From Marsupella aquatica (taxonomy: Eukaryota > Plantae > Marchantiophyta), in the NCBI GenBank assembly GCA_973895155.1, contig OZ316896.1, forward strand, positions 10,055,525-10,119,524: a stretch of 64,000 nucleotides of DNA, read 5' to 3'. Shown piece after piece: positions 17,292 through 52,040 of the stretch. A model generated the notes under the pieces. That model did no database searches. It was not told the DNA's origin and worked only from the letters and a program-made list of their open reading frames with translations. Made by a program: the position numbers and the translations under genes. Every line of letters begins with the position of its first letter. Positions within the stretch are counted from its first letter, which is position 1.

Positions 17292-17303
17292 GCTCTGATA
17301 CCA
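17292..17303 (-). promoter_or_regulatory. Primer binding site for initiator Met tRNA
   Basis: TGGTATCAGAGC on the minus strand, 2 nt from the LTR. Confidence 0.92.
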
Positions 17304-17305
17304 AT

Positions 17306-22634: not shown

Positions 22635-25600
22635 TTACATTAAAAATACCCTTGCGTTGTTCGCACGTCCTGCTTGCATTAGTAACGCTGAGGGCCCAGG
22701 GGGACCGGCAATAATTTCCTCAGATGCTAACGGCTCTTTGGGTGGCACATATAAAACCTGCTTGTTGTCATGAAGGAGCTGAGCAAAGGCTTCTGTGAAT
22801 TCCATCTCTTGAGCTGTGTCCATATACACAAAACAATCCCGACCAAGAATGACACAAGCTTTCAATGTCTGTCCTCCAAAGAAGAAATCCAACACTGTGT
22901 GACCTGGGCAGGAGAAATAATCAACAAGACGCTTTGTCATTCGCAAAAGCTTTGCTCTCGGATTTACAAAGCCACCCCGCCGACCGACCATCTCATAAGA
23001 TGGGGCCATCTTCTCCAAAACTTCAACATCAACAATGGATTCATCGAGCTTATCTTTCCCCTTTGATTGGTCTTTGTTGTTCCCAGTAGGGGCCTTCAAA
23101 GGCAAGACTGTGAAGTCTGTGTCCCACTTCTCACTACAGTTCCAAAACGCATAAAAGTCATCAAAGAAAATTTGGGACCAGTCTGGTTCCTCTTCACAAC
23201 AAATTCCCCTAAAGATGATTGAGTCTCGGGCTCCAATGAGAAAATCTCCCTCCTGCTTGGGCAGCTGATCACGGTAGTAGCTCCCATACTCCAACTTCGT
23301 GTGGACTTTCTTCTCACGACAAATATTTTCAAAGGCACTCTGAATCTGGCCTATCAATGGGCCTTGACGGACAAAAAAGATTACCAAGAGCTCCGTCAAG
23401 TTCGCCATCTGCAAACAATACTCCAGCAAGACAAAAAATTTGGCATCTGTCCACTGCCGTTGTCGAGGACGACCAAAATCGACAATGGAAAGTGGGCACG
23501 TCCTTTGCACCAAGTCAACAATCTCAGGCTTCATTGTCCTCATCAAATTATTGCTAAAAAATGTGCGATAAGGAGTATCCTCCATTGAAGGCATCCCGCC
23601 AAATACCTTGCAATATATCTGCTCAAGCCTAACAATGAGACTTTGCGGAAATGGGTCTTTTGGCCTATTTCTTTTTAGGAGGTTGGAAATCCAAACCTCT
23701 CCAGCAAGTTGTCTAAGTTTGGGCAACTCACCACGATCCATAAATGTAGGCAAAAATTGAGTTAGCTCAAACCAAGTGAGTGAATTGGCAAACCGATCCG
23801 GATACTTCAAAACAAAGTACTCCACAATTTTTGCCGTCAACTTGGTCATGACTTTGAAAGTATGTGCCATATCACTCATTGATTGAACATCAGATTTGTT
23901 GGTTGGGTCTTTCTTCAATAAAACCTTCTGTTGTTGAACGGCAGTAAAAACTTTCAGAATGTCGTCACTACTCAGGTCTCCTTCAAAGTATCTAAACAAT
24001 GCCGGCGTAATCATTTTTGTTGTCCGGGATTTCCCGTTTATTTTTGAACCTAACTCCCCTAGACCATCCGGAAGAAGTCCCTTGACCCAATCGATGCACA
24101 TTTGTCTCCAAGTTTGGAAGAGGTTCTCTTCCAAAAAAAGCAACCAAAAAATATTCCTCAGATCGGATTTTCTAGTCGTTATTTTGGCCAAGGCCATACA
24201 ATCCTGATCCAAACAGTACAAAGAAAATCTGAGGCTCGAGACGATCTTGAGGTAGAATTAAGGAACTTTGTTGAAATTTATGGGCGAATACATGAAGATA
24301 AATCAAATACAGAAACTTGACCTCGAGACTCGAGATAATCTCGAGCTAGAAGTGGATTTGAGTTCGAATTTACCTGGAACTTTTGATGATCCGTTAGTCT
24401 ATTGGACCCAATCACGGGTTTCTTCGGACGGCCACACTCGTCAAACTGTCGACGAGCATGGACCATAGTATCAAGAAAACAGGACTCATACTCCATGGTC
24501 TTATTAACAACATTTGTCCTTTGTGAGTGTTGAGCAAGTATTGTTCTTGGAGTTTTGTCCGAAAGAATTTGTGACTTTCGATATTGCAGACTCTTTGCGA
24601 CCTCCTTCAATTTTGCATCCCTCTTAGCCCAACCTATGATCCAAACAGCTGCCTTTGCCGAGTGTTGTCCACTAATTGCAAGGAACTACACCTTCTTATT
24701 CTTAACACCCCACTCAAACTCCTTTCGATCCTCAGGAGTATTCTCATAATGGAGCAACTGCGAACTCTCTCTTGAATACGGAATTAAATCCGCCACAGCT
24801 GGTACCATTCCAGGGTTTCTAACCATGGATTTCGTGACCTCCATGGCATGGTCTGTACTGAACATCCTATATACCAATATTGCAGAAGGCGAATCTATAC
24901 TAGTGACAGGAATGTCAAAAGTTTCATTCATGCCAAATGTATAATACTCCTCAATCTCCTTAAGAACTTCGGCTCCTTCTTTAATGCTCTTTTCTCCTGG
25001 AGCATCTCCTGGAGTGCCATCATCATCGGTATGTGCAATCACACCCGAGGAAGATGTCGGAATAAGATCTACCTTGGGCGGCGCGGACTTTTTTGGAGGT
25101 GGAGCCTTCTTCGCTTTGCTTTCGGGTTTCTCAACCCTTTTCCTCTTTTGAGACACCTTTGCTTCCTTTTTATCCAAACCGGATGTTTTGTCTCCTGCAG
25201 CTACAGATTTCAATTTACTTGTTTATCTCCGATGAGACAACACCCACTTTTTACAAGCATCCTCGTCAAATTCTCCGGCTCCAAAGACAAAATCAGGGGA
25301 TATGGATTCTGACATTAGTCTCAAAACCTTCCACGTGAAAGGAGTCGTGAATGCATCATCACAATCAAACCCATACTTTTGACAATAAAGGAATCCAAAA
25401 ATTATGTCAGCTCCAATTATAGGAGTATCTTCTAGCAAATTACTTGTAGTAAAACCCTCGGGGAAGAACCCCATTGATATCACGCTCAGTTGTTTCCTGG
25501 CTGCACGTTCAATGTTAAGATCGCAAGAGTAGTTTTTGGCGTGAAGTCTAATTAGAGCCCACTTCCCTGTCTCGTGGTTCTCCACTGTCAAAACCATGTC

Positions 25601-26954
25601 CTTACCGTTACTCGTCACAATAGAAACAACAGGCCCTAGAAGGCTGCACACTAGAGGACCGACTGATGGAGACCTCGTCTTCACACAAATAATAGTTCCT
25701 TCCATGTCTTCAGTTTCAGCAAGCTCAATGGCCCAAAAGAATCCAAATTGACCTTGTCCAGGGCAGGAAACCTCAATTGCATGTTCATCTTCAACTATCA
25801 AATTAGGTGATCCCAATTTCGCACCTGGTACAGCCAAAATATAGCAATTGTTAGAAACATGTACCACAAAACCAAGAAATAAATAGGTGGCTCGAGATGA
25901 TCTCAATCTTCCTTCATTTTTAGGATAGCTGAGGTGACAGTTTTATGCACTGTAGTCTGACATGTTTCAATGCCACATTTCATCCGGGGAATTTAAAAAG
26001 AGATTTCAACCCCAAGAAATCTAAAAAGATAACACAATAGTTAGGAACCACAATAGGCTCAAGATGATCTCAAGCCACCATCTATTTCAAAGAAAAAGAC
26101 AAGGGCTTGAGATGATCTCGATCCTCATATATATCAGTTGAGATTTTATTCCATTGCATATCATAAACCAGTCATCTTCACAAACGAGTTGGAGGACTAA
26201 GAAAGTGGTCCAAAAGGCAAGCTTGGATCACATTGAATAGGATATTAGTAATTGAAGTAGACGACATGGAGTCCTTCCAACTGGAAGAAATTGGCCAAGG
26301 GATACGAATGAACATAATGGAAGATGGTGATGAATATATTTGGCTTGAGACAATCTTGAGCCTAACATCTCAAACGAGTGATCCGAATATCATATTCAAC
26401 AATGAACATCATATTCAATCAATGATTAAAATCCACTTTCTCCATTGACTTCTGATACCCACAAACCCGTTCGGATGTCAATGATCAGAACGAGTTGGAG
26501 GGTAGAGAAGTCCCTGGAGGAAGGAAATTTTAGATATTTTGGATATGATGTTCACTTTTGAAGGATAAGAGTTTCCAACTTGAAGAAATCTGACTAGGTA
26601 ACATGCAGGAAATGCATATTGGCACGAGACGATCTTGAGCCTCATGCCACTTACATCAAATGCAAAATCAATTGATAGATCACAAACTTTTGAAGCAAAG
26701 TAATGCATAAAACATCAATAGGCTCGAGATGATCTCGAGCCTCAACTGCATCCAAGGAATCCAAAAACAAGTGGACCAATTGAAGCTCGAGACAATCTTG
26801 AGTTAAACCTGAACAATGAACAAAGATGATGAATTACGTTTAATGGTGCGATGGATCTGATGCGCTGAGTCTAGATGGGTCTGAAGCTCTTCCCCAACGG
26901 TTGCAAGGTTGTACTCAGCGAAGTCCTCCTTGGAGAAATCTACAACAGTCGACA
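22635..26954 (-). pseudogene. ParB-like domain fused to degenerate beta-class DNA amino-methyltransferase (outer element); upstream exons uncertain
   Basis: ORFs 25223, 24686 and 24278 share a frame across stops; AISGQHSA ParB-like motif; phase-0 intron 24204-24373; C-terminal VNPRAK...YFSCPGHTVLDFFFGGQTLKACVILGR. Confidence 0.7.
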
Positions 26955-29325
26955 TGGCTGGTGAAGAGAGGAACATACTACGGGCTGAGAACTTAAAAAC
27001 AAATCTCAGGCCTAAACAGAAAATATCAACCCTATCGAAGCTCGAGCCTAAACACAAAATCTTGACCCTATAAAATCTCGAGGAAAAAAACTAATCTCGA
27101 CCCTCTGAAATCTCGAGGCTAATACAAGGATCTCGAGGCAAGAGCGCGAGAAAATCTAGAGGCAAGAGGAGGCGAGGGAGGCAAGGAGGCGAATGTGCAA
27201 ATGGGGAGTTCAAACCCCCTGAAGCCACTATAAGCCCCTCGGCGGTCGGCCTTGAGGGCCGTGTCAAGCGTGCCACGGGCTCGTGCAGGCTCAGCCAGGC
27301 TGCCACGCAACTAGTTTGAGCGTACAGTCATTATTACGGTCACACATGTTGTCATTATTGTTATCCGTACTTCAGCCCTACCGTGAGTTTAGCCGTGACA
27401 CAAGTTCAAGCAAGCCGTCTTATTGGTCTTTTTGTGAGTCAGGGTTTTATATATTGCTTCTCTTTGCTCTCCAGCGGGTCATTCTTCTCATTTCGTTTCA
27501 CTGCTCGCTCGTTTCTCGCTCTGCCTCTCTCTCTCTCCCTCTCCCTCTCCCTCTCTCTGGCTCTAGATTTTTGCTCTGATCTCTTTCTATTGTTCTTTTT
27601 AAGGGTTGTGGACTCTACGTTTGTGTTTAGGATATGTTGAGAAATTATCATTTTAACCTCTGAAGGAGGTCTAAAATAATTGAGCACCTATCTTTTAGAA
27701 GACCAAACCTTTTCAGCTTATACTAATGTCGGTCAAAATCCATTTGGAAGCCTTTTCCCTCTATTTGATGGCCTTTTAGAAGCTATTTCTCAGTGTCTAG
27801 AAGTAAACTGGGAGCCTACTTTCTTAATTGCACCAAATCATTCCTCTAGATCATCTAGAGCCATTTATATGTTCTTATTTTGGGTGGCTTATTATTCATA
27901 ATAGTATCTTTGTCAAATACAATATCCTTTTTGGCTCGAGATCATCTCGAGTCATAAGTTTGATCCTCAAAATTATTAACTTTTGCCTTCTAGCTAATGG
28001 TGCATTCGGTTGTCCTTCTTCTAATTGAGTTTGTAGAGAGTCGGAGGTATAGAATCTGAATTTGCTATTCAATGAGATTTCATATTCTACCTTGAGATCA
28101 TCTCGAACTAGATACTTCTGAATTTTGACATATTGGTGTTTTTGGTCCCTCATCTACCTCGAGATCGTCTCGAGGTAGAAGAGTTTCTTATATTCTCTAT
28201 CACACAGTTTTATGGGATAAACTTCTACACTGGGGTTTTTTGGTTTGTTTTTGTAGTCACTTTACCTCGAGATCATCTCGAGGTAACTACATCCAACGGT
28301 TTGGACCACGTTTTCCAAATGGGGATTTTCTTTCGAGGGGACAAGGTTTGCCTCGTAATCGACGGAGTGGAAGTTGCTTGCGGGACCGTCCTCAAGGTTG
28401 ACCCGGGTGACTCAGTGCGTAATGTTGATTTGGGAAGTAATCGTATTGGAGTTCTCATTGAGAAGTGCTATGAGGGATCACGGGAAATTCCTTACCCTTT
28501 GACGCCGATCAGGACTCTATTTGATGCTGTCGACTCCTGCATTATTTGGGATGCCTCTTTTGCATATTTGAAGTCACAGTCAACTCTAGCGACAACACAA
28601 ATGGATGCCTCTTGTTCTACAAAGGATACGTTTCCCGGTTTTGTACTAGACAAATCTTTGGTGGGAAGTTTTGAAGACTCGATTATATCTGGCGACGAAG
28701 TCGAGCTCTGGATTGGCAATCAGATTGTGGCTCGTGGATTTGTGTTCAAGACGAATCCTGATGAGACCTGTCACAATGAAAGACTTGGCACTTCTAGGAT
28801 TAGTGTGAAAATATGTGAAGTTTTTCAAGGAAGGGAGAGGTTACCCTTTCCTCACAATGGAGCCGATACCGTTCAAGAAGCATTGGACACTTTTGTATTC
28901 TGGAATTTAAAGGATGTTACTTGGAGGAGTTCTTCCCAGGATATACTACACGACCTGTCCACACGGGATGTTTTTTCTAATTATAATTTCAAGGATTATA
29001 GTTTGCGTTCTAATTGGATGACCAAGGACTAGGTGGAATTGTATGTTGAGGATAATCGGACCAAAGTGGGGGTTGGCATCATCACAGTTCCTTTCGAGTC
29101 AGGTGCAATTGATGATGATGTTCTTGGGCCAGATCACGTTGGGGTTGCGGTCACACGCGTGATTGACCCTCTATTTTTCCCAAATATCTCCCCAGGAGTG
29201 CCTGGTCTTGTTAGGTGGGCCGTCCGTTCACTTCTGCTGATATCAAGGGGTATTTTTCTTTTGGATCTCATTGAAGAGGTTTCTCCAAAACCAATTATTG
29301 ATGGTCGAGATCATCTAGAGGTAGA
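24230..29325. repeat. Dispersed palindrome GGCTCGAGAT-N-ATCTCGAGCC (about 15 copies)
   Basis: Perfect copy at 26721-26741; variants near 24233, 24328, 25889, 26056, 26104, 26342, 26621, 26785, 27933, 28089, 28156, 28264, 29303. Confidence 0.88.
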
Positions 29326-30338
29326 TATGAAAGGTGACATTGAGTTTTCAAAGTGCCCGTATAACTTCATCAAGAGAACGAAGGTTAACCCAGATGAAAA
29401 AAGGAAGAAGCACTTGGAGTCTCGGGCGATACTGAAAATCACAGAGGAGGAAATTGACTCCATCCAAAGAGAAGGTTGTTGTAAGTTGAAGTGTTGCCTC
29501 AGCATGCCGAGAGAAGACCTACAGGCGATAAGGAGGGAATACCATGGGATGTCAAGCGGCAACAAAACCAGTCACATTCTCACTCTTTTTGGCTGTAGGG
29601 AGAAGGAGGTGGAGACAAAAGGATATTTCGTTGTAAGAAGTAGACTTGTTTGCAAGGGTGCATTTATTAAAATGCATGGATTCAGCACTGCCAAGTATTA
29701 TGATTACAAAAATCAATATGAAGCAGGTTGCACGGTTGGATTCCACGGAAACAAGGGTTCACACAAGACACGGGGAAGCACCTTGCATGCTCGTGCTTTG
29801 TTGGAGTCCATTCTAACCCAAAATGGAGAACCCATGCCGCATCTTCCCTATGGAGGGTCTCATGGTACTGACACGGTTGAGTACAGACTTCCATCTTGTT
29901 TCACGAAGAAAGAGATTTTTGAGGAGGTATACTCAAAAATGGAATTAGATGGCTACGTGAAGGTGAGTGAAAACACTATGTATAAACTCTGGAGTGAGTC
30001 CTTCATGAATTTTGACTTTCACAAGGGAAGTGCATTTGCAAAGTGTACACTTTGCACTGAGTTCAAAGATCAGTTGATGCGGGAGAAGAGAAAGAAAGAG
30101 CGTTTAGAGATTGAGGAAATAAGAGCTCGCCATCTTCGTGAGCAAATGTCTAGGAGATATGTTTACTATGCTCATAGGGTTCTTGCGAAGAAGGATCCTG
30201 AGAATTATCTTTGCATTATACATGACAAGATGGACCAAGCCAAGACATGGATCCCTAGGTTGGTCCCCACTCCTAAATCATTGTCTGGTAGTGGTCAACC
30301 GCTCCCCATTGCGCTCACTGGGATATTGACCCATGGAA
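28319..30338 (+). pseudogene. Outer Sola-like transposase, N-terminal part, with three Tnp1/En/Spm-like repeated domains
   Basis: Three repeats of VxxGxV...LG...IxVxI...(P.P)...W; in-frame TAG at 29030; GCCKLKCC, KCTLC, HDKMDQAK (first catalytic Asp region). Confidence 0.82.
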
Positions 30339-30494
30339 AACACGGTGACGGACCAAACGAGAAGTGTGACCACACTTCTCGTTTTGCCCGCGGCGAAAAA
30401 AGTTTCTAAGGCAAAAAAGTCTTGGATATGGAATTAGTATTCCCACTAAAAACTAGTTTTTCGAATTGAAAAAATGGGAAAAATCGACACGAAT

Positions 30495-31235
30495 ATGAAG
30501 ATGGGATACGGCGTATCCCATTTCGGATCCAACCGTGGAATTCCAAAAAAAAAAAAAAACGCAGTAAAAGTGCCGATATTGGTTTACCCAACAAGAATAT
30601 TCCAAAACAATTCTTTTCAACGGTAACATTTAACCGACTGCGATGCAACTACAGTCAAATACAAACCACGGTCAGTGAGAAAACTATAAATAGGAGATCA
30701 CCTCTTGAGAATTTTACGCTCATTTTTTCTCGCTCTGTATACTCTTACTCTCGATGAATGCACACCGTCTATACAAACTCGTATTCCCCAAAAATCAGTT
30801 TTGACGAATAGGTAAGAATCTTCCTGAAAATGGCGAGGACGAATCCCAAATGGGATACGGTGTATCCCGTTTGGGATTCAACCCTCAAATTTCAAGTTTT
30901 CATTTCACATTAGCTAAAAAAGGAGGTTGGATGCGAAGTTAGATACGGGGTATCCCATGTCGCATCCAACCTCTGAATATGAAGTATCGTAGACTCCAAA
31001 TGTCAAAACCTCAACATTGAATGCAAAATGGGATACGGCGTATCCCGTTTGGGATTCACTCTTCAAATGTCCTGTTTTTTTCTCTTTAGCTAAAAAAGGA
31101 GGTTGGATGCGAAGTGGGATACGGGGTATCCCATGTCGCATCCAAACTGCGAAAATGAAGCATCTTAGAACATAAATGTTAAAACCTCAACGTTGAATGC
31201 GAAATGGGATACAGCGTATCCCGTTTGGGATTCAC
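30495..31235. repeat. Palindrome array 1: TGGGATAC-NNN-GTATCCCA core with extended arms, six copies
   Basis: Copies near 30502, 30841, 30926, 31017, 31101, 31192. Confidence 0.9.
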
Positions 31236-31944
31236 TCTTCAAATGTCCAGTTTTGATTGCCCATGTGGTATTTACCTAGAGTTTATTTGAATGATGGGAA
31301 AAACCTTATGGATTACTGATTGTTTCGCAGGCGAAGTTCAACTAAACTGTACGCACTGAAGCTCTTGCTGCCTTTCAGTGACCGACACCCACTCAAGCTT
31401 AAGCTTTCCTTGAAAAATGAAGTTTTCTCTTGTGAGTCTAATGGCAGTTCAGAATCAAAACCTTGAGAAATGTGCTCATCGATTGTATAAGCGATTAGTT
31501 GCACTCAAAGTTCTTCATCCTGGATTAGGCGCGCTATGGACCGGAGGCGTGGATCCACATGATAGTTTGAATCCACTCCGAATAGAGTTTTATGAAAAAA
31601 AATGAGGATGGAGTTTTGATTCGGTTGAGGATATGTTTGAGTGGTTGTCTGCACTCTGTTAATTCTTCTTGTAACTATTGTCGTGATGCCCAAAACAAAT
31701 ATCATCGATTGGCATATTTTTGTTGTCGGATTTGGAACGAAGATCCTTGGGTTAACTTATCGCGTTGAATTTTCTTGATTAGTGTGTAAGTGTTTAGGTG
31801 AACGTTCTTGGGTCAAACATTTTGTGAATATATTTTTATTTTGATCAAAGAAATAAAATCAGTTTTTCCATCACTGTTTTGTAGGTTGCTGAGAAAGAGC
31901 TCACCATCTCATTTATTACTCCAGGTATCCACTCTTATTTTGGA

Positions 31945-32496
31945 ATGGCAGTCACTGAGAACCCTGTCTTTACAAGGTTAGCGATGTCATTCGACAAAGA
32001 GAAGAAACAAATTCAACAAAAAAGTGGCCAAAGGGAATCCAGATTGCTTTTGGATGGACTTCCTGACGAGATTGTTGAAACGTTCATTTGGCCCATTTTG
32101 AAAGTTTGTTGTATAGAGGATGAGTTTGATTCCTCCAAGAACCAAGCTGATGAAAGATTGATGCGATTAAAAACCATGGTGTGGTTTGGATGCACCTCCA
32201 AGAAATGGAACCAGCTCGTAATTTGTACACGAGTCTGGGGTATTCTTAGACTAGCAAAAAGCCAGCTTGAGGAAGTAAATGAAATGCTGACAAGCATTCC
32301 CGATGGAAAACCCCTTCAGAATGTTCATATTGAAGCTTTTGTTAGGATGGAAACACCGAATCTTCCTCCAATCGATTTCTTAGGTTTATTTTCAAGGTCT
32401 GACCTAAATCGATTTCAAGAAGACTGGCACAATCTTGAGAAAGATGAGCAAGCGAGGCTCTTGGAAATGTATGGGGAAGCTTCTAGTCTGGTTTAG
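31945..32496 (+). CDS. F-box-like protein (transposon cargo)
   Basis: Uninterrupted 183-aa ORF; LLDGLPDEIVETFIWP ... CTSKKWNQLV resembles an F-box with an insertion. Confidence 0.55.
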   Translation: MAVTENPVFTRLAMSFDKEKKQIQQKSGQRESRLLLDGLPDEIVETFIWPILKVCCIEDEFDSSKNQADERLMRLKTMVWFGCTSKKWNQLVICTRVWGILRLAKSQLEEVNEMLTSIPDGKPLQNVHIEAFVRMETPNLPPIDFLGLFSRSDLNRFQEDWHNLEKDEQARLLEMYGEASSLV

Positions 32497-32939
32497 AGCC
32501 ATCTTGAATGGGCTCTTTGTAAAGACTCTTTTTAAGAATATCAACTTAGTTTTTTTTGTGGCACAATTCCGAATGAATAAAGAGTTACCCGATTCGCTAC
32601 GCGTAAAATCTATTTGGTTGAATACAAGGACTTGGGGATATGCCTTATCTCTAGTCCCATCAAGAGAAAAAAATATACATAGACATCCGGACTCCAACCC
32701 TACGCTTTTGGATACACATTATCGCCTGTGGAAACCTTATCACCTGTGGATACGAAGGTGATAAAGTATAAATAGGAGTGCCTGGTCAGAAAAATTACTC
32801 TCATTTCTTTTTCTTCTCAACTTTGTTTACCTCCGCGTTTTTCTCGGGCCGCAACATCTCTATAGCTTTTCGTATTTGCTCGAATCGAAACCAAAAACTA
32901 GGTAAAACCTGAAGAAACTCTCCCCTCCTCGTTTGGTTA

Positions 32940-33330
32940 ATTGTTGAATCCTGAGAGGGATACACCGTATCCCCATTTGTATTCAACTCTATTATTTGGC
33001 CTCCTTTTCAATATTGAATACGAGATGGGATACCGCGTATCCCATCTCGCATTGAACACCCTCTTTTAGTCTTCCATCCGAACCTCCTCGCTCTTTCTTG
33101 ACTTTGAATACGAACTGGGATACCGCGTATCCCATTTCGCATTCAACTTCCTCTTTTTTGTGCTTTGCATCAGACTCGAGGCAATTGTTGAGGTTGGATG
33201 CGAAGTGGGATATCGCGTATCCCATTTTGCATTCAAGTCCCTCTTTTTTGTTAATTGCATCAGACTCTGGACATTTGTTGTTGTTGGATGCGAAGTGGGA
33301 TACCGCGTATCCCATTTTGCATTCAACTCC
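32940..33330. repeat. Palindrome array 2, mostly ~90-bp period, upstream of the ParB-MTase gene
   Basis: Five copies near 32944, 33014, 33104, 33193, 33283. Confidence 0.9.
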
Positions 33331-33425
33331 CTCTTTTCTGTTCTTTGCATCAGACTTGGCAATTATTGATGTTGGATGCCAAGTGGTTTGGTCTGGTTCT
33401 AAGTGTGTCAATCTTTTTCAGGATC

Positions 33426-36400
33426 ATGTCGAACAAATCAAAGTCGTCTAGTTCGACCCAGTCTTCATGGACATCCATCATCGATGAGATTTGGAAGAAA
33501 GACCTTTACACGGAGGAGAAACTCGTGAGGAATAGGTGGTACTTCAGGGATGCTCGGGCAATGGATATTCACATAGCCTATGAAGGTCCAGCGGTGTGGT
33601 TGGTTATCGTTAAGGGTAAAGACCATTGCCATTATGGATTAGTCGTGGACACCGGGGAGGCGGATATCATCGACTCAAAAACAAAACAGCTGAAGAAGAT
33701 TCCAATGTACCTTTGCATTCTTTCGAACAATGCCTTCACTGTAGTTGTCCTCAACTATAAGAAACTTGATCGGGTCTCGATGAACACATTTCCTCATGAC
33801 CCAATCTGCCAACTAATTTCGGAAGTGCCGGAGATTGAGGACTTTTCTTATTGGTGTTTGAAATTTGTCTTGAAGTCTTGGAGGGTTGTTGAGGATTTTA
33901 CGAAGGTAACATATAGGTCAGTTGTTGGAGCCAACTTTGGCGTCAAAGAGCGGCCTTTGAAGTTGAAAGTGACAAAGCCTACCGATCCGGCTTCAAAGTC
34001 AGGGGAGATGTCTAGAACACCCTCGACAAAGGAGAAATCTGCCATAGTTTCTCTTAAGGAACCGGCAAAGAGGAAGCTTGCAGATCAACTCTCTGGGGAA
34101 GGTTCTAAAGTAGCGGTGTCAGGAGAAGCTATTGTCAAGAAGAAATTGGATCGACGTGACATCCAGAAGCGCGCGCCTTCTGCACCAGAAAGTGTTGTCT
34201 CATCTTTGGTCCCACCAATTTCATAGACACCTCACATTCCTTCAACTTTGTCAGGTGGGCTTTCTTTATCATCTAGAGGAGCTGTTAAAGAAAAGAAAAA
34301 TGATTCAACAGATATCACCACAGCTTTGCAGCGGGAAAAGACACTTGTGGTTCGTGAAGTAGTATCTTGGTTGATGGAGACTAAGCGAGTTCAGAAGACA
34401 ACAGTTATTCTGAAAACAACTAACCTGCTTCTTGTTGACGATATTGACGACGAGAACTCAACGTTGGTTCGAACAGTCGATCAGTTGCATGTGGAGAACA
34501 TCAAGACTTTGATGAAAATGAATCCGACAAATTTCACGACGCCATTTGTCTTGTTTGTGATCCTGGAAGACTGCCCGACAGTGACAGACTAGGACCCAGA
34601 AAAGGCATCAAGCTAGAGATATCGAGTGATTGGAGGTAATCACGGTGCTCGGGCCAAGAGAGAATTGTATCAGGCTTATGGGAGAGAGATCTTCAATGAA
34701 CTCCAAGCTTGGGTGTATGCTGGTCTCACAAGGGAGGACATTCAGAAACTTAGCATCCAACATAATATTGATCAGGAGTACAGGAAAAAAATGAACAACA
34801 TTGATCAAATCCGAACAATGCATAAGATTTTCCTTGCCAGAGGAATGGCAAAAACCAAGGAGAGTAGAGAAGCGTGTGCGATGGAGGTTTGCCTCGACGG
34901 GTTTTTTCCGGGGGACGCCACAAGCCTGAAGAAGCATGAGCCTCTCTTCCAAATTGCGTTTAGGTCGGGTAAGGTCTGGGAACTCCAAGACCAGATCTTT
35001 GAGATGTGGAACAAGTTGGAGATCAAAGGGCAGAATAAGCAGAAGTCACCTATCAAGAAACTCAAGAAAGGAAAGGGAAAAGCGCAGTCGATTCCAAAAG
35101 CTTTGAATAAGCTTGCAGGGGGCCTTACCTTGACACCTTGGAGAGCAATCCAGGGAATTGAACACGACCGATTTTTGGAGTCCCTTCTTCTCCGAGTGAA
35201 GGACCGGATGATCTCTTTGGAGCATATGGCAAAAGAAGCCGAGAGTTACAAGAAACTTGTGAAAATCAGCAAGCTTTTTGTTCAGTTGTCAGGGCAGAAA
35301 GACTGGGCGACTTGCAAACGAATGTTTCCGAAAGAAACAGAATCTGCCGAGCTTGAAAGATGGAGTGGGAAATTGTCCGATGTGGTATGTTCTCCCCTTC
35401 CACTGATTGGACTTTTCTATTTGTTTCGCCATGTTCGGAGGTTTTCTTTGTGGATTTCTTGTTGGAATGCGAAATGGGATACGGGGTATCCCATCTCGGA
35501 TTCACTTGTGCTTATTTGATGTTGGTGATGTTTCAATGCGGTTTTTTCTTGGTTGAATGCCAAGTGGGATACTCGGTATCTCATCTCGTATTCACTTGTG
35601 GTTATTTGAAGTTTGTGATGTTTCAATGTGGTTTTTGCTTGGTTGAATTCAAAGTGGGATACGCGGTATCCCATCTCGTATTCAATATGGTTATTTGACG
35701 TTTGAGATGTTTCAATGTGGTTTTTGCTTGGTCGAATGCGAAGTGGGATACAGGGTATCCCATCTCGGATTCACTTGTGGTTATTTGACGGTGGTGATGT
35801 TTGACTATGGTTTTTGTTTGGTTGAATACGAACTAGGATACGGAGTATCCCATGTTGCATTCGTCGTCCAGATTTGATTGTTTGAATTCCTAAATGGTTA
35901 TCTCCCCATTGTCTTTCCTCTAGATTCTTTTAACAAGTTTGCGTTTGCAGTTGAAAGCTTTTTCGAAGAAGAAGAACAAGGATGCAATTGGTGCTGATGC
36001 GGTTGAGAAGCCTACGGAGGAGCTGACTTCGAGTGTTATTCCCCCGGGGTTTAAGAATTACGTTCAAGAAGCGATTGAGAACTACAACCGTCGTCGTGGG
36101 ATTGAAACGGTTGAAGCAGAGTCGAGTGACCATCGATGGAAAAATGCTGACATAAATTTTATCAGATATACATTGCATTGTGGAGATGTCAGGGCGCTGG
36201 ATAAGTTTGTAAAGAAAAGGAATTACACACTTGCAATTGCAGACATTCCTTATGGATTCAATGCGCTTGGCTCTGAAAATGATGAGGTCCCATTTTCAGA
36301 GAATGATATTGTGGATATGGTGAATTGTTTTGCCAAGGTGACAAGTTCAAAGATGTGGAGGTTTGTTGTGATTCACTCTTTGCAGCAAACTTGGTCTGTG

Positions 36401-37060
36401 ATGAATGCTCTTGGAAAAACTTGTAACGCAGGTGTAGAGGCTAGAATTTGGGAGAAGCCAAATGTACATGCTCATCCTTCCGGGAATCGATTGGCTTGGG
36501 CTTTTGAAAACTGGTCAATCGGATATTATCACGAGAGTGGTATTAGGACCAGAGACATGTACAATTTTGAACATGATGAGAAAAGGGTAAACATCATAAA
36601 AGTCCCTTATGTTACAAAGAAATGTGTAACACCATTGGGAGAAATAGTGAACCCTTACCAGAAACCGATAGCTTTAGCAGATTGCTTCGTTCAACATTTT
36701 AGTGAAGCAGGGGATTGGGTTGCTGATTTATGTGCGGGGAGTGGTTCGACCTCATGCACTGCCTTGTTAGGGAAACGTCCAGTGACAGCCGTGGAGCTCA
36801 GTGCAAGCCAGGTGGATTGTATCCAGAAACGACTTGTCACGCTTGATGAATCGTGGGACTTGAATGATGAAGCAACCGAGGAGGGTACAGGACCCATGAG
36901 CTTTGAGGTTCAACCACCTATTGGTGGTACTATGAGCACCCTCACCACTCGAACTTGCATTATTACAACCACGGAGGAGAACGACAATGATGAGGATGAA
37001 GAGGATAAAGTGGAACATGAAGCTCCGGCACTTGATCTTGGCTCATTCCTTGAGGTATAG
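33426..37060 (+). pseudogene. ~1030-aa ParB-like + beta-class N6A/N4C DNA methyltransferase fusion; exons 33426-35384 and 35924-37060
   Basis: One frame across three TAG stops; VIGGNHGARA ParB-like motif; phase-0 GT-AG intron; ADIPYG (motif IV) precedes YQKP...DWVADLCAGSGST...AVE (motifs X, I, II). Confidence 0.85.
35455..35865. repeat. Palindrome array 3: five 90-bp tandem units inside the ParB-MTase intron
   Basis: Units start near 35461, 35551, 35641, 35731, 35821; sequences between palindromes are near-identical. Confidence 0.92.
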
Positions 37061-37160
37061 ACTTAAGTTTGATTAGTTCTCTCATGTTGTATCTATTGAT
37101 CCAAACTTGTGAAATATTGAGGAAGATTATAATTGGACTATGTTCTTATTTCACAAAGTA

Positions 37161-38083
37161 ATGTCTTTGCAAGAACCAAAGGAGGATTTTGTATTGAAAC
37201 ATGTTCTGCATAGATTCTCACACAATTCTTCTAGTGGATTTTTTTTGGACAATAAAACATTGAGCCAACTTGAACCCGGTCAATATTTGGGTGATGAAAT
37301 AATGGAATTTTACCCACAATTAATAACCGAGGAACATGGAGATCTGGCTCCCTCAGTAAACACATTATCCTCTTTTTTTACCCTTGGCTTGTTTCAAGGA
37401 TTGAAACAGAACCAACTGAGACCTTGTTGGAATCAATTCAAAAGATCCAAAATTATTACAAGCCACCATTTTCCCAAATTGAGGTCATTCTCATGCCAAT
37501 TCACATGAGCATGCACTGGAGTCTGGTTGTAATATGTTTGGATCAGATTGAATCTTCGATCAAAATGTATCATCTAGACTCTCTCGCCGGTCTACACTCA
37601 ACCCATGTAATTGGATCAATACTGAGCAGGTACGTATATATTCTATTACATTTTTTCAATTTGAATTTATTTATGTGGTACATAAATATAAACACTTTGG
37701 ACTAAGAACTTTGAATGATAATTTGCAGATATTTTATAATGGAATGGGAATTATTTTTTGGAAAAGTTCCAATGGAAGTTGTGGAGATATACAATCCAAT
37801 GGTAAGGATTTGAAAAGTTATTTCAACTTTTATTTAGTTCAATTATTAAACACTTTGGACTAACTTTAAGATTCTTTCTCAGGTACCTCAACAACCAAAC
37901 AATTCAGATTGTGGTCTATTTGTTCTTCAAAATATGGACGAAATCAGAATTCAATGGCATATTACACAATGCCTTGATGCACAGTCTTTATTTACTGAAA
38001 AATGGTACAATTGTAAAAGAGCATGTAACCTTAGAAAATTCATTCGAGATCAAATTCTAAAATTGATGCATGTACCTATTTAA
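37161..38083 (+). pseudogene. Ulp1/SENP-like C48 cysteine protease, three exons, one frameshift near 37430
   Basis: YLGDEIMEFY; ILMPIHMSMHWSLVVI; YHLDSL; final exon 37883-38083 reads VPQQPNNSDCGLFVL. Confidence 0.85.
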
Positions 38084-38094
38084 GGACATCAATC

Positions 38095-41000
38095 TCAATC
38101 CTCTGAGTGTGCAGAACCTCTCTCTAATATAGCAGACTCTATAATTTTTTTAGTTTTTGCTGCTATTTGATTAGTACTTAAAAGCGCAAAGTTGTATGCA
38201 TACACCGCTGTTGATGATAGAACTAGTTCATCTTGGAGAAGTCGATTAGATATATTATCTTTCTCTGGAAAATATTTCCCATCAATAGCAGACTCAGCAC
38301 TTGCCTCAGTTGTGTACCATGTGATTTTGATTCTCTTAGGAATGTCTGCAGTTCTTGTCAAAATCTTTGACACCTTTGCCATCCAAAACAACTTGCCTTC
38401 TGGATCCTTGTGTGCCGCTACACATATCATGGACCACTTATTGTTAACTTCCATATCTCTGAAATCTCCAAATTCAGCTTGCTTTCGTCGAGGTCCGGAG
38501 TACATAATTCTCTGTGGTCTAGCAACTTTGTCAACCAAAGTTGGATCAACACCTTCTTCAACAAGTTCATTTCTCACCCTTGGAAGTAGTTGTGCACCTT
38601 GATTTTGTTGCGGCCAAACCCACTCAAATAACCACTCACCTTCCTCTAGGTGGTTTTTGATAATATCTTTTTGTTTCTCAAAAAAACTCATCCACCAAAG
38701 TTTATCTTCATTGTCAAAGTAATTGAAACCTTCCTGGATAGCTTTTTCATATTTCACCAGAGTAGTTAATGCACCATCTGTATTGGAAGAATCATGGACA
38801 TCATCCCTCTCAACACCTTTTGCTGACTTCAGTGACATTTGTGCAGCAACCCACATTCTTGAAGTTGGAATGTAATTGACGAACGTCACTGCATCTCCCC
38901 AATCCTGGGTCGTGGAAAGATGTTTCCCGTGAAATTTTGTCTCTTCGTTTCCATCCTCCATGACTCGTTTGAATCTGAATTGCCTTTGAAAAGTTATGAG
39001 ATTGAGATCTCTCAAGACTCTACTTGAGACTCCCTTCTCATTTGGCTGGTTGTTTTCATTGACAAATTTTCAAAAATCGGCTACTTCATCCACAAATATG
39101 ATCAAAGCTTCAGGTGAATATGCTCGTCGAATAATATCCCCAAGAGTCTCCAAGCGAAATGCTTTGTGCTTGTTTAACCTAGACAAAAATTTACTAAACA
39201 TCTGATCTATCTGGTCATGTGTATGACCGACCAACAAGAAACCCACTTTAATCTTGTCAAAAATCTTCAAATCTACTAACATGTGAAGATAAGCCATCAA
39301 GAATTTATTCTTGTTTTCCCGAGTGGTATTATCTAATTGAAGATATAACACTCTTGGTAATGTCCCATCCCATGTATTCAATACATTTTGAATAACATGT
39401 ATGGTCAAGTTTGCATCATTATGGATATTGGGATATGTCAAAAATACTTTTGCTACAAGGTTCCTGTTGAAGATGAGACAACCTACAACATGTATTGGAA
39501 TGAAATACTTTTCATCCATGTTCTTTGGACAACGAAGAAAATGTGGTAGCTCTATTTTCTTTTGATCCATACCATCTATACAAATACCCAAATACTTGTT
39601 GGGCTCATCATAGCATTTTTTACGATGCTTGGCTAACTTCATCCTTTCCAATGATTGTACTTTTCGATGCTCCATAAGGGCATTGATATACTTTCCTGAA
39701 ATGATACAATAGCAATGAATTAAAAATCAATAACTAAGGATAAACTGTGATAAATATTGAATTACATGTCATCAAATTAAAGTTGAAGGTTATAGTTAGT
39801 GGAACTTACTTTTATCCTCTTCAGTTGTTGCTTTGTCCCGAAGAGCCTTGAATTCAGTACAAGGACCACAAGTAGAAAATCGACTCCTTTTAGGAATTCG
39901 TACATTTGGAAACTTTTTTTTCCAAACATGCAAAAAATAAGAATATGTAACTTGTTGTTCTTCTCGCAACATTGTTTCAGCTTCAAAGATTCCATGTATC
40001 TCTTGCTTTGTCCAATTGTCTGGCAAGTGATGAATCTCTTTATGGGGAAGACTATCCATATTTTTTTGGAAAAAATCTTTCAACCATTCCACCAAGTTTA
40101 GAAATGAAGGTGAGTCTTCCTTACAAAAGGTATCTCGTTCAATCCTTGTAAACATGTTTGCATGGATTGTTGCCAATCTATTATTACCTAAAGAATATAG
40201 TTTCTTGAATCCTCCTCTACATATAGGTTGTCCATTTACACTATATCCACGAGAAGTACTACAGTTGTTCATGATACAACCTCGTAGCAAAATATTTTTT
40301 TGCAAGTGTTTAAGACCAAAATAATACTTGCGTTGTTTTGAGCATTCCTCTAGACCCAGAGACCTCAAGCAAAACTTGTCACAACAGGGATACTTAAAAA
40401 TATCTTTAATTTTGCGTTTTTTTAGATTTGCAATGGTAAGTCTATCTTTTCTAATCATCTGATCTCTGATTTTCTTGCTGGGTCTTGTCACCTCTACTCT
40501 ATCCTGAATAGTGTCGGGAGAACTTACCCCCTCACTATTTTCTAGTGAATTAGAATTTAAAACAAAAAGATTTTCTGTAGAGTTGTTTCCACTCTCCACA
40601 TTTTTTGTAACTGTTTCATGAACAATCTCACCTCCCAGGATCTCTTCAACAACATTTGAGATTACAGCAGTCTCTCTGTCATTTGCAGCCTCCTCTGATC
40701 TCTCTTCAGAGTCTTCTAAAAATGTAATAGGTGTTTGGATATTTCTAGTTTGAAATCTTCTAATGATATTCACATCTTCAGTCGGAGTACCGCCCACTTG
40801 TCTCTAAGACTGTAATCCCAGCCTAGGTGATTCTTCTCGACTTGAGGGCTCATCTTGACCATTGAATAATCTTTGGACAAGTTTCAATTTAGCATGTACC
40901 CTTGAATTTTCGGGCCCTCTCTCTGGCAGCTCACTTCGCAATAATCTCCGAGGAATTTTTTGGACACTAGATCTCTTCCCTCTTTCGTTCTGCGCTTGCC

Positions 41001-41980
41001 GTCCAATGGAAGATCCAAAAACCTCACACTGCATCCTCGCCAAAGGGCTTCGAAGTCCCATGTTGTTAGTTTTACCACTGTGAAATAACTGATGGGAATA
41101 CCGATTGGGATCCATGGATCCCAACTCGTATTCGTCCTTCGGGACTTCGAAGTAAAAACTTTCCCACTTGCTGTTTTGCGTCATGACTTGGTAATTTTTC
41201 GTTGCGCAATACGAACTGGGATCCGCATATCCCATTTCGCATTCCACCATCGGAACTCGGGTTGGAAGTCCGTAAGATCGGTGACTCGGGCACAAGATTC
41301 TGCAAAATAACACGAGGGAATACTAAGTGGGATCCATGGATCCCACTTCGTATTTGACCCAAGGAATTTGGTACTGAAGGAGACGAAATAGGTAATTCGC
41401 GTTCACCGTTTCTCAACATTCAAGTAGAAAATACCAAGTGGGATCCACGGATCCCACTTGGTATTCCACCCACAAAATTTGGCTCCGAGGCTGCCCCTCC
41501 CTGCAATTCCGGCACATTTGGACTCCTCATTCGCTCAAACTGTGATTGAACACTGGACACAGCTATCTTCACTCCCGGAGAACGAGACATTGGAAAAACC
41601 AATGGAGATCTTCGGGCGGGCCTACATGATAACGTTGTTCTTGGCATTAAAAACCGGGGCCTTTGCCTTTGAAGATTTGTCGGGGTTCGCGGTGAACCAA
41701 GTGTCTCTGTCGTAGGAACTACATTAGGCTTCTTTACAAGTAGACGTCGTTTAAGAGATTTACTTGGAGAGACATAGTATGAAATCGGAGCACCCACAAC
41801 ACTCCTACAAGACTCTGAATCAGACTCTGATTTCTCAGATTCTGAGGAAAATGAAATCTTTGGCACTACTCTCTGTGAGGCTGGTAATTCATTCATCAAA
41901 CGAGATGGAATAAATTTTCGAACAACATCTGGCGAAGATGCATCTGAACTGTAAATTGACTCATCACTTGAAGACGCCAT
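38095..41980 (-). pseudogene. Inner Sola-like DDD transposase, spliced, with premature stops
   Basis: PCCDKFC, TCGPC, IDGMDQ, LQLDNTTRENKN, FLLVGHTHDQIDQMFS; intron near 39697-39810; TGA at 39070 in frame with ORF 38095. Confidence 0.85.
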
Positions 41981-42765
41981 AGAGAATCAAACAAGGGTTC
42001 TATAGGAGTACGTATTCGTATCCAACAGAGAAAATTCAGATTACAGTATTCTATGAAAACAACTACTCAATACTGAACGAACCTCAAAGTAATCGCGAGA
42101 AATGAAGATGAAAAACAGATGCGAGCTCTTCCTTTTATAGTTTTCGGGGGCATTGGACACATGGCATTCCCTGATTGGTCCGTACGAGGGTTTTTTCACG
42201 TGAGAGTCTGTCTTTTCAAAGAATGCTGAAATTTAAATTGTAGATTTTCGAGGAAGTCGCCGTGGATCCCAGTTGGTCTTCAAACTGGAATATCAAGGTA
42301 TGTGATGCAAAAACTTCAAAATGTAGAGGTTGAATACTAGATGGGATCCATGGATCCCATCTGGTATTCATCTTCCTGTTTTCCCAATCAGTTTTTGGAC
42401 TTGCAAAAAAAATGGGATCCATGGATCTCAGTTGGTATTCATGTCGAAAGATCTCCTGATGCAAAGTTGCAAGTGGAAAACATTGAGGTTGAATACGATA
42501 GTGGATACTTGGATCCCATCTCGTATTCATCATGCGTTATGGTCTAAAAAGTTTCCGGACATGTCGTCAGGTTAACTTAACTAACTGTGTGGTTTGACTG
42601 TAGTCCGCGGTCAGTTTTTCGCAATTTTCAATTTTATTGCAGTCAAAAATTCAAACATTTTTAACCCGAGGTTAAATGGAAGCGTCAAGAGAATGATTTG
42701 GTGTGGATTTCGTCCATGTTCAATAGTTGAATCCGAAATGGGATACGCCGTATCCCATTTTCAGT
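41085..42765. repeat. Palindrome arrays 4-5, mostly the TGGGATCCATGGATCCCA variant
   Basis: Copies near 41090, 41206, 41316, 41436, 42329, 42412, 42488, 42726. Confidence 0.85.
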
Positions 42766-43109
42766 TTGCCATTTTGATGGCGAAAATGAAATCTTGTGTT
42801 TTACTCATTTTGTTTGACGCTCAGATTTAGCTTTTAGAAGGATCACGTGAAAAGCATTGTTTTTCCAGGTTTTGGAATTTGCACTTTTTTTAGATGAAGT
42901 GTATCGGAATTCTGGATTGTGACAATTCTGTGTTTTTGCATCGACAGTCTCTCGATTTGAAATCCGATGTTGGATGCTATTTTGGATTCATCCTCAAAAT
43001 AGCCTTTTTGATCTTAATTTTAGTGATTTTTCGCCGTTTTTCGCGAAATCAAAAACACACTTCTCGTTTGGTGGTCATACTTCTCGTTTGGTCCATCACT
43101 GTGTTGGAA

Positions 43110-44807
43110 GGGATCCCGGAGTGTATGCTCACTTCAGTTTCACTGGGCTTTGGCCGGGAGATGCAGACTTCACAGTGACATCATTGGCCAAGTGCCTTAG
43201 AGATCTGGAGGATTACAAGGGGGACAAATCTGGACACCACCTTGAAGGATTATATTGGGCTGCAACGAGGCCAATTTTTCAATCTCTTTTGGACTTTGAA
43301 GCATTTCTCGCAGGTTACTTAGAACCCAAAAAAGTCTCAATTGCTAGATTTCAAGGAGCTGAAGATGACCAAGATCTTGGGTTATCAAATGTGGTGGATG
43401 ACAACTTTGGTGTTGATCCCAAGGCTACATCTACCTCTTTCAAACCATTGCCAAGGCACCTGACCTTGCAAATGGATAATTCAGGGAAAGATTATAACAA
43501 AAACCAGTACGTGATGGCATTTTGCAGTGAGCTTGTTAGTAGAGGGGTTTTGAAACAGTGCATATGTCGTTTCTCATGGTTGGTCACACCCATGAGGATG
43601 TCGATGCATTGTTTTCAAAAGTATCCAACCAAGTGAAGTACAAGGAGGTTTCTACCCTCTTGGGGTTGATGGCTGAGGTTTGGGAGTGTGAAAGCATTCA
43701 TCCTGTCCCACGGTTGATCCAAGAGGTTGCAGCTTATAAAGAGTTTTTGAAAACTTTCAAGGTAAAAGACATAGAGGGTCACTCAAAACTAGTGGCATTT
43801 CTTTTCTCTATGAGAGATAATGTTCCAATATATCAATACAAAGCACATGTGAAACAACCTTGGTACCCTCCAACCGGAAGGTCCATTTGGAGAACTGATT
43901 CCAACACCAATGCTCTCATTTTACCAGAAGGTCAACCGTTTGCAAAACCCATCTCCGGGGATGTACGAGGCAAGGTTGAAGAAATCATCCCATTGCTTAA
44001 TCATTACATTGAGTTTTTGAAGAAGAGTTGTAAGGATGAGACCTCTACAGTATATCGTGAGCGGTTTCCTTTGGTGAAATATTGGGAGATGGTGGTGCAA
44101 GTATTATCTGGGGAGCTTACAATTGAAGGGGAGGTAGAAATAGCATTGACATATGAATTCTGGCCAAAAACCAACCACGGAACTGGTTACAAGGTTAATA
44201 GTACAGGAACCTCTGAACCATTTGGGGAGCCTAGTAGTAGTACACAGAACCCACAAATGGTGGAGCTTCAGAATGAGTACTTGGAAGAGATGGAGGATCA
44301 AGCTGGCACAACATTTGTTGGCGCTTGACACGAGCGAGAACTTGCACTTGGATTCCTCTGCAGGACATTCAAGAGGGTCACTTTGTATTTCTCCGTCCAG
44401 AGGATGAATGGGAAAAGAAGAATAGGAAAGAACGTTTCTGGTTGGTGAGAGCTTTGGGTGTTGTGGACCCAAACCATGAAGTTCCTTCAGGAGACTTGCA
44501 ATGCAATGAGAATTCTCCTACTAGTACACGGTATGCTCCTATGTTCCAAGTGCAATGGTGGAGGCCTAAACATGGTAAGCATGATGCACCGGATCATGTG
44601 CGATATTCACGTTGCTTTCAGACCACTAAGACTTGGGAGGTGGATCCTGGGTTTGACAGTGCCACTGAACGTTGGCAATTTGCTAATTCTGCTATGTATG
44701 GATTCAAGTCACGCTCTAGAGAAGAAAATATAATTGATAGAGGTTTGACCATTCCCAAGAATGTTTTGAAAACACTCAAAACCTACATGGAAGGGATTGT
44801 TGAGTAA
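43110..44807 (+). pseudogene. Outer Sola-like transposase, C-terminal part
   Basis: LTLQMDNSGKDYNKN and SFLMVGHTHEDVDALFS (second and third catalytic Asp); two frameshifts. Confidence 0.85.
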
Positions 44808-51120: not shown

Positions 51121-52040
51121 GGAGGTCATTAAAATACTCAGGTGAGTCTGGGTGCCTTGCTGGAAAAATTAAGAGAGGTGATAAAAATACTCAGGTCAGT
51201 CAGGGTGCCTCGCTGGGTGCAGTTCTTCTACTATTTGTGGACCTAGAATAGCAGCTTTAAGGCTTTAAGAAGTTAAGATTTCACACTCCTCAGGCTAGCT
51301 GGACATAGATCTCACATTGGTAGTTCCGTAGAATGAATTCAAGGAATGCCAAGATTGAGGATATGTAGGTGGTGACGGACATTTTCAAAAGCACTTGCAA
51401 CCCCGCTTGCAACATCCATTCAAGGAAGAATATCTCTATATATATTAGATGTTTACCAGGAAGAGGACATACATGTAAATTGCAAGTGAGTCATTGTTGA
51501 TCAAGGAAGCTAGCAGATAAAATAGAGCACCTAAGAATTATTCATACATGCTGGAGTTTGTCTGATATATAGAAATCACGTAGTAATCGCACGTTCTTAC
51601 ATACATACATTGAAACGACAATGACCAATATTCCAGGCCTCTTATCTGCGTCTTTCTGTGAACAATAGACACGTTTTATAAGATCTATCTACATGAGATC
51701 ATACCTGGAATCGATCTGTTTGCCAAGGCAAGGCAAACTAGACACCTATTATTTTCTAATTACATCGATAAGTTCGTGACGTCTCCTCAGGATTACAAAA
51801 AATTGTCCGAGAGAACCCAAGAAAACAACCCAAGAAAACAACACAAGGGACGGTTGGTACTAGAAAACCATTCCATCGCTGATGTGAAGAATCCTTGATT
51901 GGCTACTCGAGCTAGTTGTGATTCTTTATTTACTCGAGAGCAGACCGTACTGAATACAACTTTGCTTCATTCACAGTCATAGCTTGAGCTATATTTTCTA
52001 GGCTTCGTTGACTGCTAGTCGCAGCGGATCTCACATATTT

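Follow-up and report, generated by a model that had tools for sequence, protein, structure and literature searches.

What would a plant transposon do with a protein that joins a module of the bacterial ParB type to a DNA methyltransferase? The question arises from a 64,000-nucleotide stretch of the liverwort Marsupella aquatica (assembly GCA_973895155.1, contig OZ316896.1, forward-strand positions 10,055,525 to 10,119,524), here called the window, to which all coordinates below refer. Between 33426 and 37060, four open reading frames (ORFs) are listed separately, and a first-pass annotation made from the letters alone had read them as one hidden gene, interrupted by three TAG stops and a phase-0 GT-AG intron, that fuses a ParB-like module to an amino-methyltransferase. 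The analysis presented here finds that this gene is real and spliced, that it joins the two modules in one chain, that it is carried by a terminal inverted repeat (TIR) transposon with a DUF7869 transposase, and that the copy in the window is dead. For the intact form, we consider it an even call whether the ParB module docks on the dyad repeats of its own element and the protein would thereby methylate element DNA, probably at adenine N6.

Four reading frames, one gene

From the ATG at 33426, the forward-strand frame runs to 35384 through 653 codons with exactly three in-frame TAG triplets (34224, 34590 and 34614), and a phase-0 GT donor follows directly at 35385. Six related metagenome loci were compared, five of which contain both halves of the gene, the sixth (L006) being more distant, and in each of the five the intron opens with a phase-0 GT donor at this codon and closes with a CAG/TT acceptor. 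The natural protein P0032 is continuous over the junction with no intron, and the nine of 27 exon homologues that reach it all read Q followed by F, L or I. Together with the open frame and the single-chain fusions described below, these observations bear out the one-gene reading. The junction itself had been placed at 35384/35924; its donor holds, and the acceptor at 35923 was dropped in favour of 35950 (TTGCAG/TTG) because all five two-half loci use CAG/TT and nine homologues read Q then F, L or I. The protein consequently measures 1022 aa and not 1031, which replaces the earlier figure of about 1030. No splice joint for this intron was present among the joints listed from four sequencing runs of related material, all of which are contigs.

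The first coding segment comprises an N-terminal domain of unknown fold (about aa 11–200), a low-complexity linker, a ParB-like N-terminal domain and a helical part. The N-terminal 200 residues returned no family match, and they are kept in loci L002 and L003 at 22–23% identity (E about 1e-11 to 1e-13).

A profile of the ParB half retrieved 462 clusters at E up to 0.001, and in 20 of the best 150 of these hits the methyltransferase-exon profile finds a match in that chain as well. A first search for longer proteins bearing the methyltransferase exon had returned none, a weak negative that this profile search overturned. Among 20 proteins looked up, the named hosts are Chara braunii, Riccia sorocarpa, Adiantum nelumboides and Ginkgo biloba, with Actinia tenebrosa and Clastostelium recurvatum as hosts of more distant relatives; single-chain ParB-methyltransferase fusions are annotated in Chara, Riccia, Adiantum and Ginkgo. 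The PF01555 cut-off is passed by seven of 30 long hits. The gene model of one relative, P0060 of Chara braunii (GBG86584.1), shows two tandem ParB-plus-methyltransferase units in 1825 aa, and two others, P0077 and P0144, contain SAM or Tudor-like domains.

The ParB-like module

Modelling of a homologue indicates that the middle part of the protein has the ParB/Srx N-terminal fold plus a putative helical DNA-binding part. A search with the ParB segment found five homologues among 3184 candidates (49–53% identical). Folding the window's ParB half from its single sequence gave an unusable model (predicted local distance difference test, pLDDT, 35), and the model used here was built for homologue P0028 from 13 sequences (pLDDT 63, predicted template modelling score 0.49). 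In a Foldseek search of the PDB with this model, ParB, Noc and KorB lead the list (best E 5.9e-4), and in BFVD the lead is taken by viral ParB proteins. Structural comparison of the same model with VIA gave Z values of 8–9.3, among them PadC (Z 8.9, root-mean-square deviation (rmsd) 2.8, 98 aligned residues) and Caulobacter ParB (Z 8.7, rmsd 2.5, 99 aligned), such that residues 30–162 of P0028 superpose on the ParB N-terminal domain at rmsd 2.5–2.8. The match of the helical part to the Spo0J-parS structure 4umk is middling (Z 6.0, rmsd 4.3, 97 aligned), and helix-turn-helix profiles are weak (HTH_ParB at E 0.05 in one of five homologues, Spo0J at E 0.53). At the profile level, the PHROG ParB-like family phrog_1033 matched homologue P0030 (E 7.8e-5), one of ten proteins scanned, and no Pfam ParB family reached its cut-off in the window proteins or the homologues scanned. 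The ParB-like call therefore survives through fold and PHROG matches of homologues, and not through Pfam. Phages and plasmids yielded no match to the ParB half.

The canonical ParB motif, GERR or GxxR, supplies an arginine patch that binds cytidine triphosphate (CTP). The window has GGNHGARA at 34632–34655, as do close homologues, and a CTP-gated clamp is doubtful because the motif is without the arginines of the ParB consensus.

Look-alikes of protein P0028 in the Atlas are fungal DUF3723 clusters (0.95–0.96, a recognition value under the Atlas bar), and PF12520 (DUF3723) matched none of 5 close and 30 longer relatives. DUF3723 is a conserved cargo gene of fungal Starships (bioRxiv 2021.12.13.472469), and the fungal proteins may be ParB-like.

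The methyltransferase exon and its probable target

By its fold and motifs, the C-terminal exon classifies as a beta-class N6/N4 amino-methyltransferase. PF01555 scores 29.1 bits in the window exon against a cut-off of 26.7, and 32.9–34.8 bits in homologues; the phage methyltransferase family phrog_498 matches the exon at E 5.6e-15; and a homologue model reaches a TM score of up to 0.82 (by target) to N6_N4 methyltransferase clusters. The motifs run DIPY (36242–36253, exon aa 98), NPYQKP (36650–36667, aa 234) and DLCAGSGS (36725–36748, aa 259), and the beta-class assignment made earlier from this succession agrees with the published order, in which motif IV precedes X and I (PMC10406627). Enzymes of this class act as dimers (PMC10406627).

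An exon search found 27 homologues among 683 candidates (46–82% identical). Motif IV reads DIPY in 20 of these, DVPY in three and DLPY in one, three sequences not covering it, so that aspartate stands first in 24 of the 24 covered; every motif IV match among longer representatives starts with aspartate as well. The ratio of nonsynonymous to synonymous substitution (omega) is 0.04–0.08 in the four of 15 exon pairs that are measurable, synonymous sites being saturated in the other 11, and 0.06 in the one measurable of 10 ParB-exon pairs. These values indicate that the gene is under purifying selection.

With regard to the target base, SPPY is the motif of most N4C enzymes and DPPY that of bacterial N6A enzymes (PMC8885841). 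N6-adenine is the better guess because motif IV is of the aspartate type in 24 of 24 close homologues and this published association ties SPPY to N4C and DPPY to N6A; the target is thus probably N6-adenine rather than N4-methylcytosine (4mC). That the same targeting delivers an enzyme that writes 4mC is, in our estimate, improbable. PF01555 includes both chemistries, the dyad cores described below contain a conserved C as well as an A, and a family profile run against solved structures places rotifer N4CMT barely on top (E 0.0075, against 0.0092 for the adenine enzyme M.RsrI), a pair of matches that fails to separate the two and so counts against the adenine reading; on the other side stand the absence of SPPY, the aspartate in all covered close homologues and in all matches of longer representatives, and the cited association. 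The resemblance to the 4mC enzymes of rotifers and Marchantia that had been drawn at first is accordingly a matter of the PF01555 fold, and does not extend to motif IV: those enzymes have SPPY or TSPPY, and the close homologues here have D-[IVL]-P-Y in 24 of 24 covered.

We rate as rather improbable a further alternative, in which the methyltransferase fold is non-catalytic and serves for DNA binding or dimerisation, the protein being a reader, repressor or anti-silencing scaffold. DIPY and DLCxGxG deviate from DPPY and FxGxG, many longer relatives are without a recognisable motif IV, and the methyltransferase-like ORF of the outer element into which this transposon is inserted is degenerate, the last two points also telling against an active writer. 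Yet the aspartate and tyrosine of motif IV, NPYQKP and the glycine loop are kept within the clade across a saturated synonymous distance.

No close prokaryotic donor was found among viral contigs, prokaryote genomes, phages and plasmids. Viral contigs held no relatives of the methyltransferase, the transposase or the dyad, prokaryote genomes gave one match (30% over 59 residues), and phage matches are 22–36% identical. Prophage contamination is ruled out by the introns and by the plant retroelements in the window.

Dyad repeats around and within the gene

The element contains 24 copies of a 38–39-bp dyad, 17 with the core GGGATAC-N3-GTATCCC and seven with GGGATCC-N2-GGATCCC (Table 1). A generic pattern consisting of the GAAT arms plus GA in the core has 27 matches inside the element against 2.1 in 10 shuffles, four of the 27 looking like chance, and four matches in the 51 kb outside it against 6.6 in shuffles; the pattern was derived from the very sequences scored, which weakens the comparison. 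The arrays are confined to the element, and coding spans as drawn, which make up 59% of it, are overlapped by none of the 24 dyads.

The dyads of related loci have the same outer GAAT..ATTC arms and are likewise 38 bp long, but their core is another. The pattern has 16 matches in L002, eight in L004 and five each in L005 and L003, the core being GCGAGAC-N2-GTCTCGC in L002, L004 and L005 and CCGATCC-AA-ACATCGG in L003; L001 has five GCGAGAC-type cores outside the reach of the fixed-length pattern, and L006 has no dyads. Pairs of elements that share a core are 76–93% identical in the helical segment of the protein, and pairs with different cores 33–65%.

In the 17 main-class dyads, pairing between the outer arms does not exceed that of shuffled partners (p 0.35). 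This is more in keeping with protein sites than with hairpins, and a hairpin role for this class is left without support.

If these dyads are protein sites, whose are they? They could be sites of the DUF7869 transposase, in the manner of subterminal repeats, with the ParB-methyltransferase acting without them, elsewhere or more broadly. We hold this to be unlikely. In its favour, dyads occupy both subterminal regions and surround the start of the transposase gene, as transposase sites would, a placement that speaks against the ParB module as their reader; and since families differ in their transposase as well, cores particular to each family would be expected under both readings. Nevertheless, the ParB-methyltransferase gene has ten of the 24 dyads immediately 5' of its start or inside its intron, at least 2.6 kb from an end; all five related intron-bearing loci have dyad cores of their own; and ParB proteins bind inverted repeats, arrays of which adjoin the ParB gene of red-algal Plavaka elements (bioRxiv 2025.02.11.637652).

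In the reading that we prefer, at even odds, the ParB-type module would bind its element's own dyads, the beta-class methyltransferase would then mark the element's DNA, probably at adenine N6, and the mark might protect the element from silencing by host 5-methylcytosine (5mC), or license transcription or transposition, by analogy with the VANC proteins considered below. Dyad binding, catalysis, target base and purpose are alike what we infer for an intact copy. Several further observations weigh against this reading. The ParB model is moderate and was made for a homologue, and the ParB motif of the family is GNHG or GNHS, with an arginine after the histidine in just three of 45 matched representatives. 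At 21 conserved columns out of 129, the window's methyltransferase exon has a residue other than that of most homologues. The stretch that holds four of the 24 dyads (41096–41466) is one whose exon limit was set by eye, and an open frame crosses three of these dyads; in the seven variant-core dyads, pairing does exceed that of shuffled partners (p 0.016); and the agreement between core and protein comes from five elements in three classes, where kinship alone would give it.

Extended to streptophyte DUF7869 elements at large, the proposal becomes a tentative one, possible but well short of even: that they encode a self-addressed N6-adenine writer whose ParB reader co-evolves with the dyads and whose mark counters host 5mC. 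Were this true, it would constitute an enzymatic anti-silencing strategy and a defined source of N6-methyladenine in land-plant genomes, and possibly a hint at the role of DUF3723 in fungal Starships. For experiments, the family offers a catalytic motif conserved under purifying selection, homologues that occur uninterrupted in nature, and candidate cores that differ between families and could be swapped across them.

The host transposon

The gene lies between inverted ends that agree at 32 of 35 positions, flanked on both sides by GGAA (Table 1); a 5-bp target duplication, TGGAA, is compatible too if the ends are shifted by one base. At the empty site the reading frame of the outer DUF7869 gene is restored, and contigs in three of the four sequencing runs join 30333 directly to 43105. 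Many variant contigs with a high summed depth cover the region, which marks it as multi-copy, the depth yielding no copy number. The motifs DGMDQ, QLDN and GHTHD together with DUF7869 put the element tentatively with Sola, a superfamily of DDD/E transposons whose target-site duplication is 4 bp long; it is on these motifs and this duplication length that we call the element Sola-like. Other domains in the window, from Copia, Gypsy and CACTA elements, are in keeping with a plant host. The mobility in a plant host that had been proposed at first is thus supported by the inverted repeats, the target duplication, the copy number above one and the surrounding plant retroelements. The first-pass annotation mentions neither the ends of the element nor its transposase nor its dyad arrays.

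Table 1. Features of the transposon and of the ParB-methyltransferase gene that it carries (window coordinates)
Feature	Position	Strand	Remarks
TIR transposon, 12,767 bp, DUF7869 transposase, Sola-like	30339..43105	.	sits in DUF7869 gene of second element
Left target-site duplication GGAA, 4 bp	30335..30338	.	right copy 43106-43109
Left terminal inverted repeat	30339..30373	+	starts AACAC
Right terminal inverted repeat	43071..43105	-	pairs with left repeat
Dyad array, left subterminal, 6 copies	30490..31233	.	core GGGATAC-N3-GTATCCC
Cargo ORF with F-box-like LPDEI motif	31885..32496	+	by eye; no Pfam match
Dyad array directly 5' of ParB-methyltransferase start, 5 copies	32946..33324	.	about 90-bp spacing
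First coding segment: N-terminal domain, linker, ParB-like domain, putative helical DNA-binding part	33426..35384	+	TAG 34224, 34590, 34614
Phase-0 GT-AG intron holding five dyads	35385..35950	+	position and phase common to 5/5 two-half loci; P0032 reads across
Dyad array in intron, 5 copies	35465..35862	.	about 90-bp spacing
Predicted beta-class N6/N4 amino-methyltransferase exon	35951..37060	+	PF01555, phrog_498, homologue model; acidic tail
Ulp1/Peptidase_C48 gene in pieces (introns, frame break)	37113..38084, approximate	+	PF02902 E 7.1e-9
DUF7869 transposase gene	38095..41986, exon limits approximate	-	PF25273 E 1.3e-44; motifs DGMDQ, QLDN, GHTHD
Seven variant-core dyads GGGATCC-N2-GGATCCC, in and upstream of transposase gene 5' part	41096..42528	.
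Single dyad, right subterminal	42729..42767	.

The transposase gene is convergent with the ParB-methyltransferase gene, the same neighbour end being found in L001, L003 and L004, and in the window it carries premature stops at 39070–39072 and 40804–40806. The Ulp1 gene is missing from the corresponding position in L001.

This setting bears on the possibility that the ParB-methyltransferase is a host-domesticated or captured gene with a plant function, or else an RNA methyltransferase, which we regard as highly improbable. Introns and purifying selection mark host genes too, and amino-methyltransferases have shifted to RNA repeatedly in eukaryotes (PMC4738411); but the gene lies between inverted ends with a target duplication, has the same transposase beside it in three related loci, is multi-copy in the sequencing runs and decays like a silenced repeat.

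State of the copy in the window

The stops at 34590 and 34614 are peculiar to this copy and count as lesions, because TGG stands there in 91–100% of the depth in all four sequencing runs; homologues have tryptophan at both positions. At TAG 34224, no variant reached the listing threshold of 40% of depth in any of the four runs, and this stop may be common to the copies or lie inside a further short intron. Related loci have an intron, judged by eye, just 5' of the ParB exon, and the window offers a weak 63-nt in-frame intron candidate (34192–34254) whose removal would excise the TAG. Among 30 copy-specific transitions, drawn from the 40 of 1644 variant rows listed, 19 are in CG or CHG context against a background of 26% (p 2e-5), which fits decay under plant 5mC. 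The ParB-methyltransferase copy in the window is dead. As for the first-pass suggestion of a mobile source of non-canonical methylation, the gene is mobile and its host a plant, and this broken copy is itself no source.

Other features of the window

The element has inserted into an outer DUF7869 transposase gene (28112–30338 and 43110–44807, forward strand) that is split by the 12.8-kb insertion and whose summed depth in run X2 is far above that of the inner element; the ends of the outer element were looked for and not found. Divergent from this gene, at 22635–25942 on the reverse strand, lies a stop-interrupted and intron-split gene with an ISGQHS motif and a degenerate PF01555-like end (E 2.5e-4, below cut-off). 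A ParB identity for it is unsupported (it scores 1.6, and the best of 200 shuffles 1.3). Between 20090 and 29320 there are 15 matches, with up to two mismatches, to a different palindrome, CTCGAGAT-N-ATCTCGAG, which is limited to the left part of the outer element, the intron of this second gene included.

Elsewhere, a Copia element is nested in a Gypsy pol (11209–17739), with two near-identical ends that bear an 18-bp tandem repeat; a CACTA Transposase_21 ORF occupies 315–1523 on the reverse strand (E 1.5e-37); three diverged copies of another repeat, one inverted, lie at 46266–48679, 51442–53967 and 60116–62576 (78–90% in matched blocks); and a tandem array of 19-bp units spans 18998–19206.

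Comparison with known systems

ParB-methyltransferase genes on transposons have already been reported in algae, with self-modification as a proposal. In the brown alga Ectocarpus, Sola1-1_Ec32 encodes a 1104-aa protein with ParB-like and N4C/N6A methyltransferase domains opposite its transposase, and self-modification was proposed (PMC12477816). The likeness is considerable, both systems combining a ParB-like module and an amino-methyltransferase in one chain of about 1000–1100 aa, encoded on the strand opposite the transposase in a large TIR element. The elements, compared by description only, differ in that the algal one measures 21.5 kb, whereas the present one belongs to a land plant, measures 12.8 kb and carries Ulp1 and F-box-like cargo; defined dyad arrays are present here, and the portions of PMC12477816 consulted hold no passage on palindromes. 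In the red alga Bostrychia, Plavaka elements carry PAG2 (PF01555 plus SET) and PAG3 (ParB plus 2OG oxygenase), with inverted-repeat arrays by the ParB gene that were proposed as its sites (bioRxiv 2025.02.11.637652). Here again transposon-borne ParB and N6 methylase domains occur with tandem inverted-repeat arrays beside the ParB gene, but in separate genes on an EnSpm/Plavaka element, as opposed to one chain on a DUF7869 element. Self-binding and self-modification are proposed in both reports (PMC12477816, bioRxiv 2025.02.11.637652). The literature search found no description of a land-plant ParB-methyltransferase element or its dyads, although supplements to the algal papers may describe relatives or repeats, and found no papers on DUF7869.

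Each half of the protein also has more distant counterparts. Rotifer N4CMT and Marchantia MpDN4MT1 are host genes with SPPY or TSPPY motifs and shown 4mC activity, the rotifer protein bearing a chromodomain (PMC8885841, PMC10406627, bioRxiv 2021.02.12.428880). Like the present exon, they are eukaryotic examples of a prokaryotic-type PF01555 fold of the beta class, and they differ from its DIPY motif, its ParB fusion and its mobility, the similarity to N4CMT being weak and extending over 70 residues. Bacterial ParB, Noc and KorB with parS, and phage ParB-methyltransferase loci (PMC4738411), show the same N-terminal fold, followed by a helical DNA-binding part that is putative here, and palindromic sites, for which the dyads are the candidates here, whereas the structural matches are 8–21% identical and the present system has GNHG, no ParA, bipartite candidate sites of 38–39 bp, a eukaryotic N-terminal domain and introns. 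Retrotransposons of Symbiodinium and charophytes carry C5-methyltransferases for which self-methylation was proposed (PMC5890265); these too are transposons bearing a DNA methyltransferase of their own, although the mark is 5mC, the carriers are retroelements and there is no ParB module.

For the purpose proposed here, a parallel is offered by VANC, an anti-silencing protein of Arabidopsis VANDAL elements; the motifs that it binds are specific to the family and occur in introns, between genes and in terminal regions (PMC5735166). Both are transposon-encoded proteins, and the dyads described here occupy the same kinds of region. VANC causes loss of 5mC, whereas the fold of the present protein is that of a methyl writer and its candidate dyad sites are long, and no homology between them is expected. 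If active, the intact protein would give land plants a non-canonical DNA mark written by a transposon's own enzyme, and would provide a second, unrelated route to sequence-specific anti-silencing beside that of VANC.

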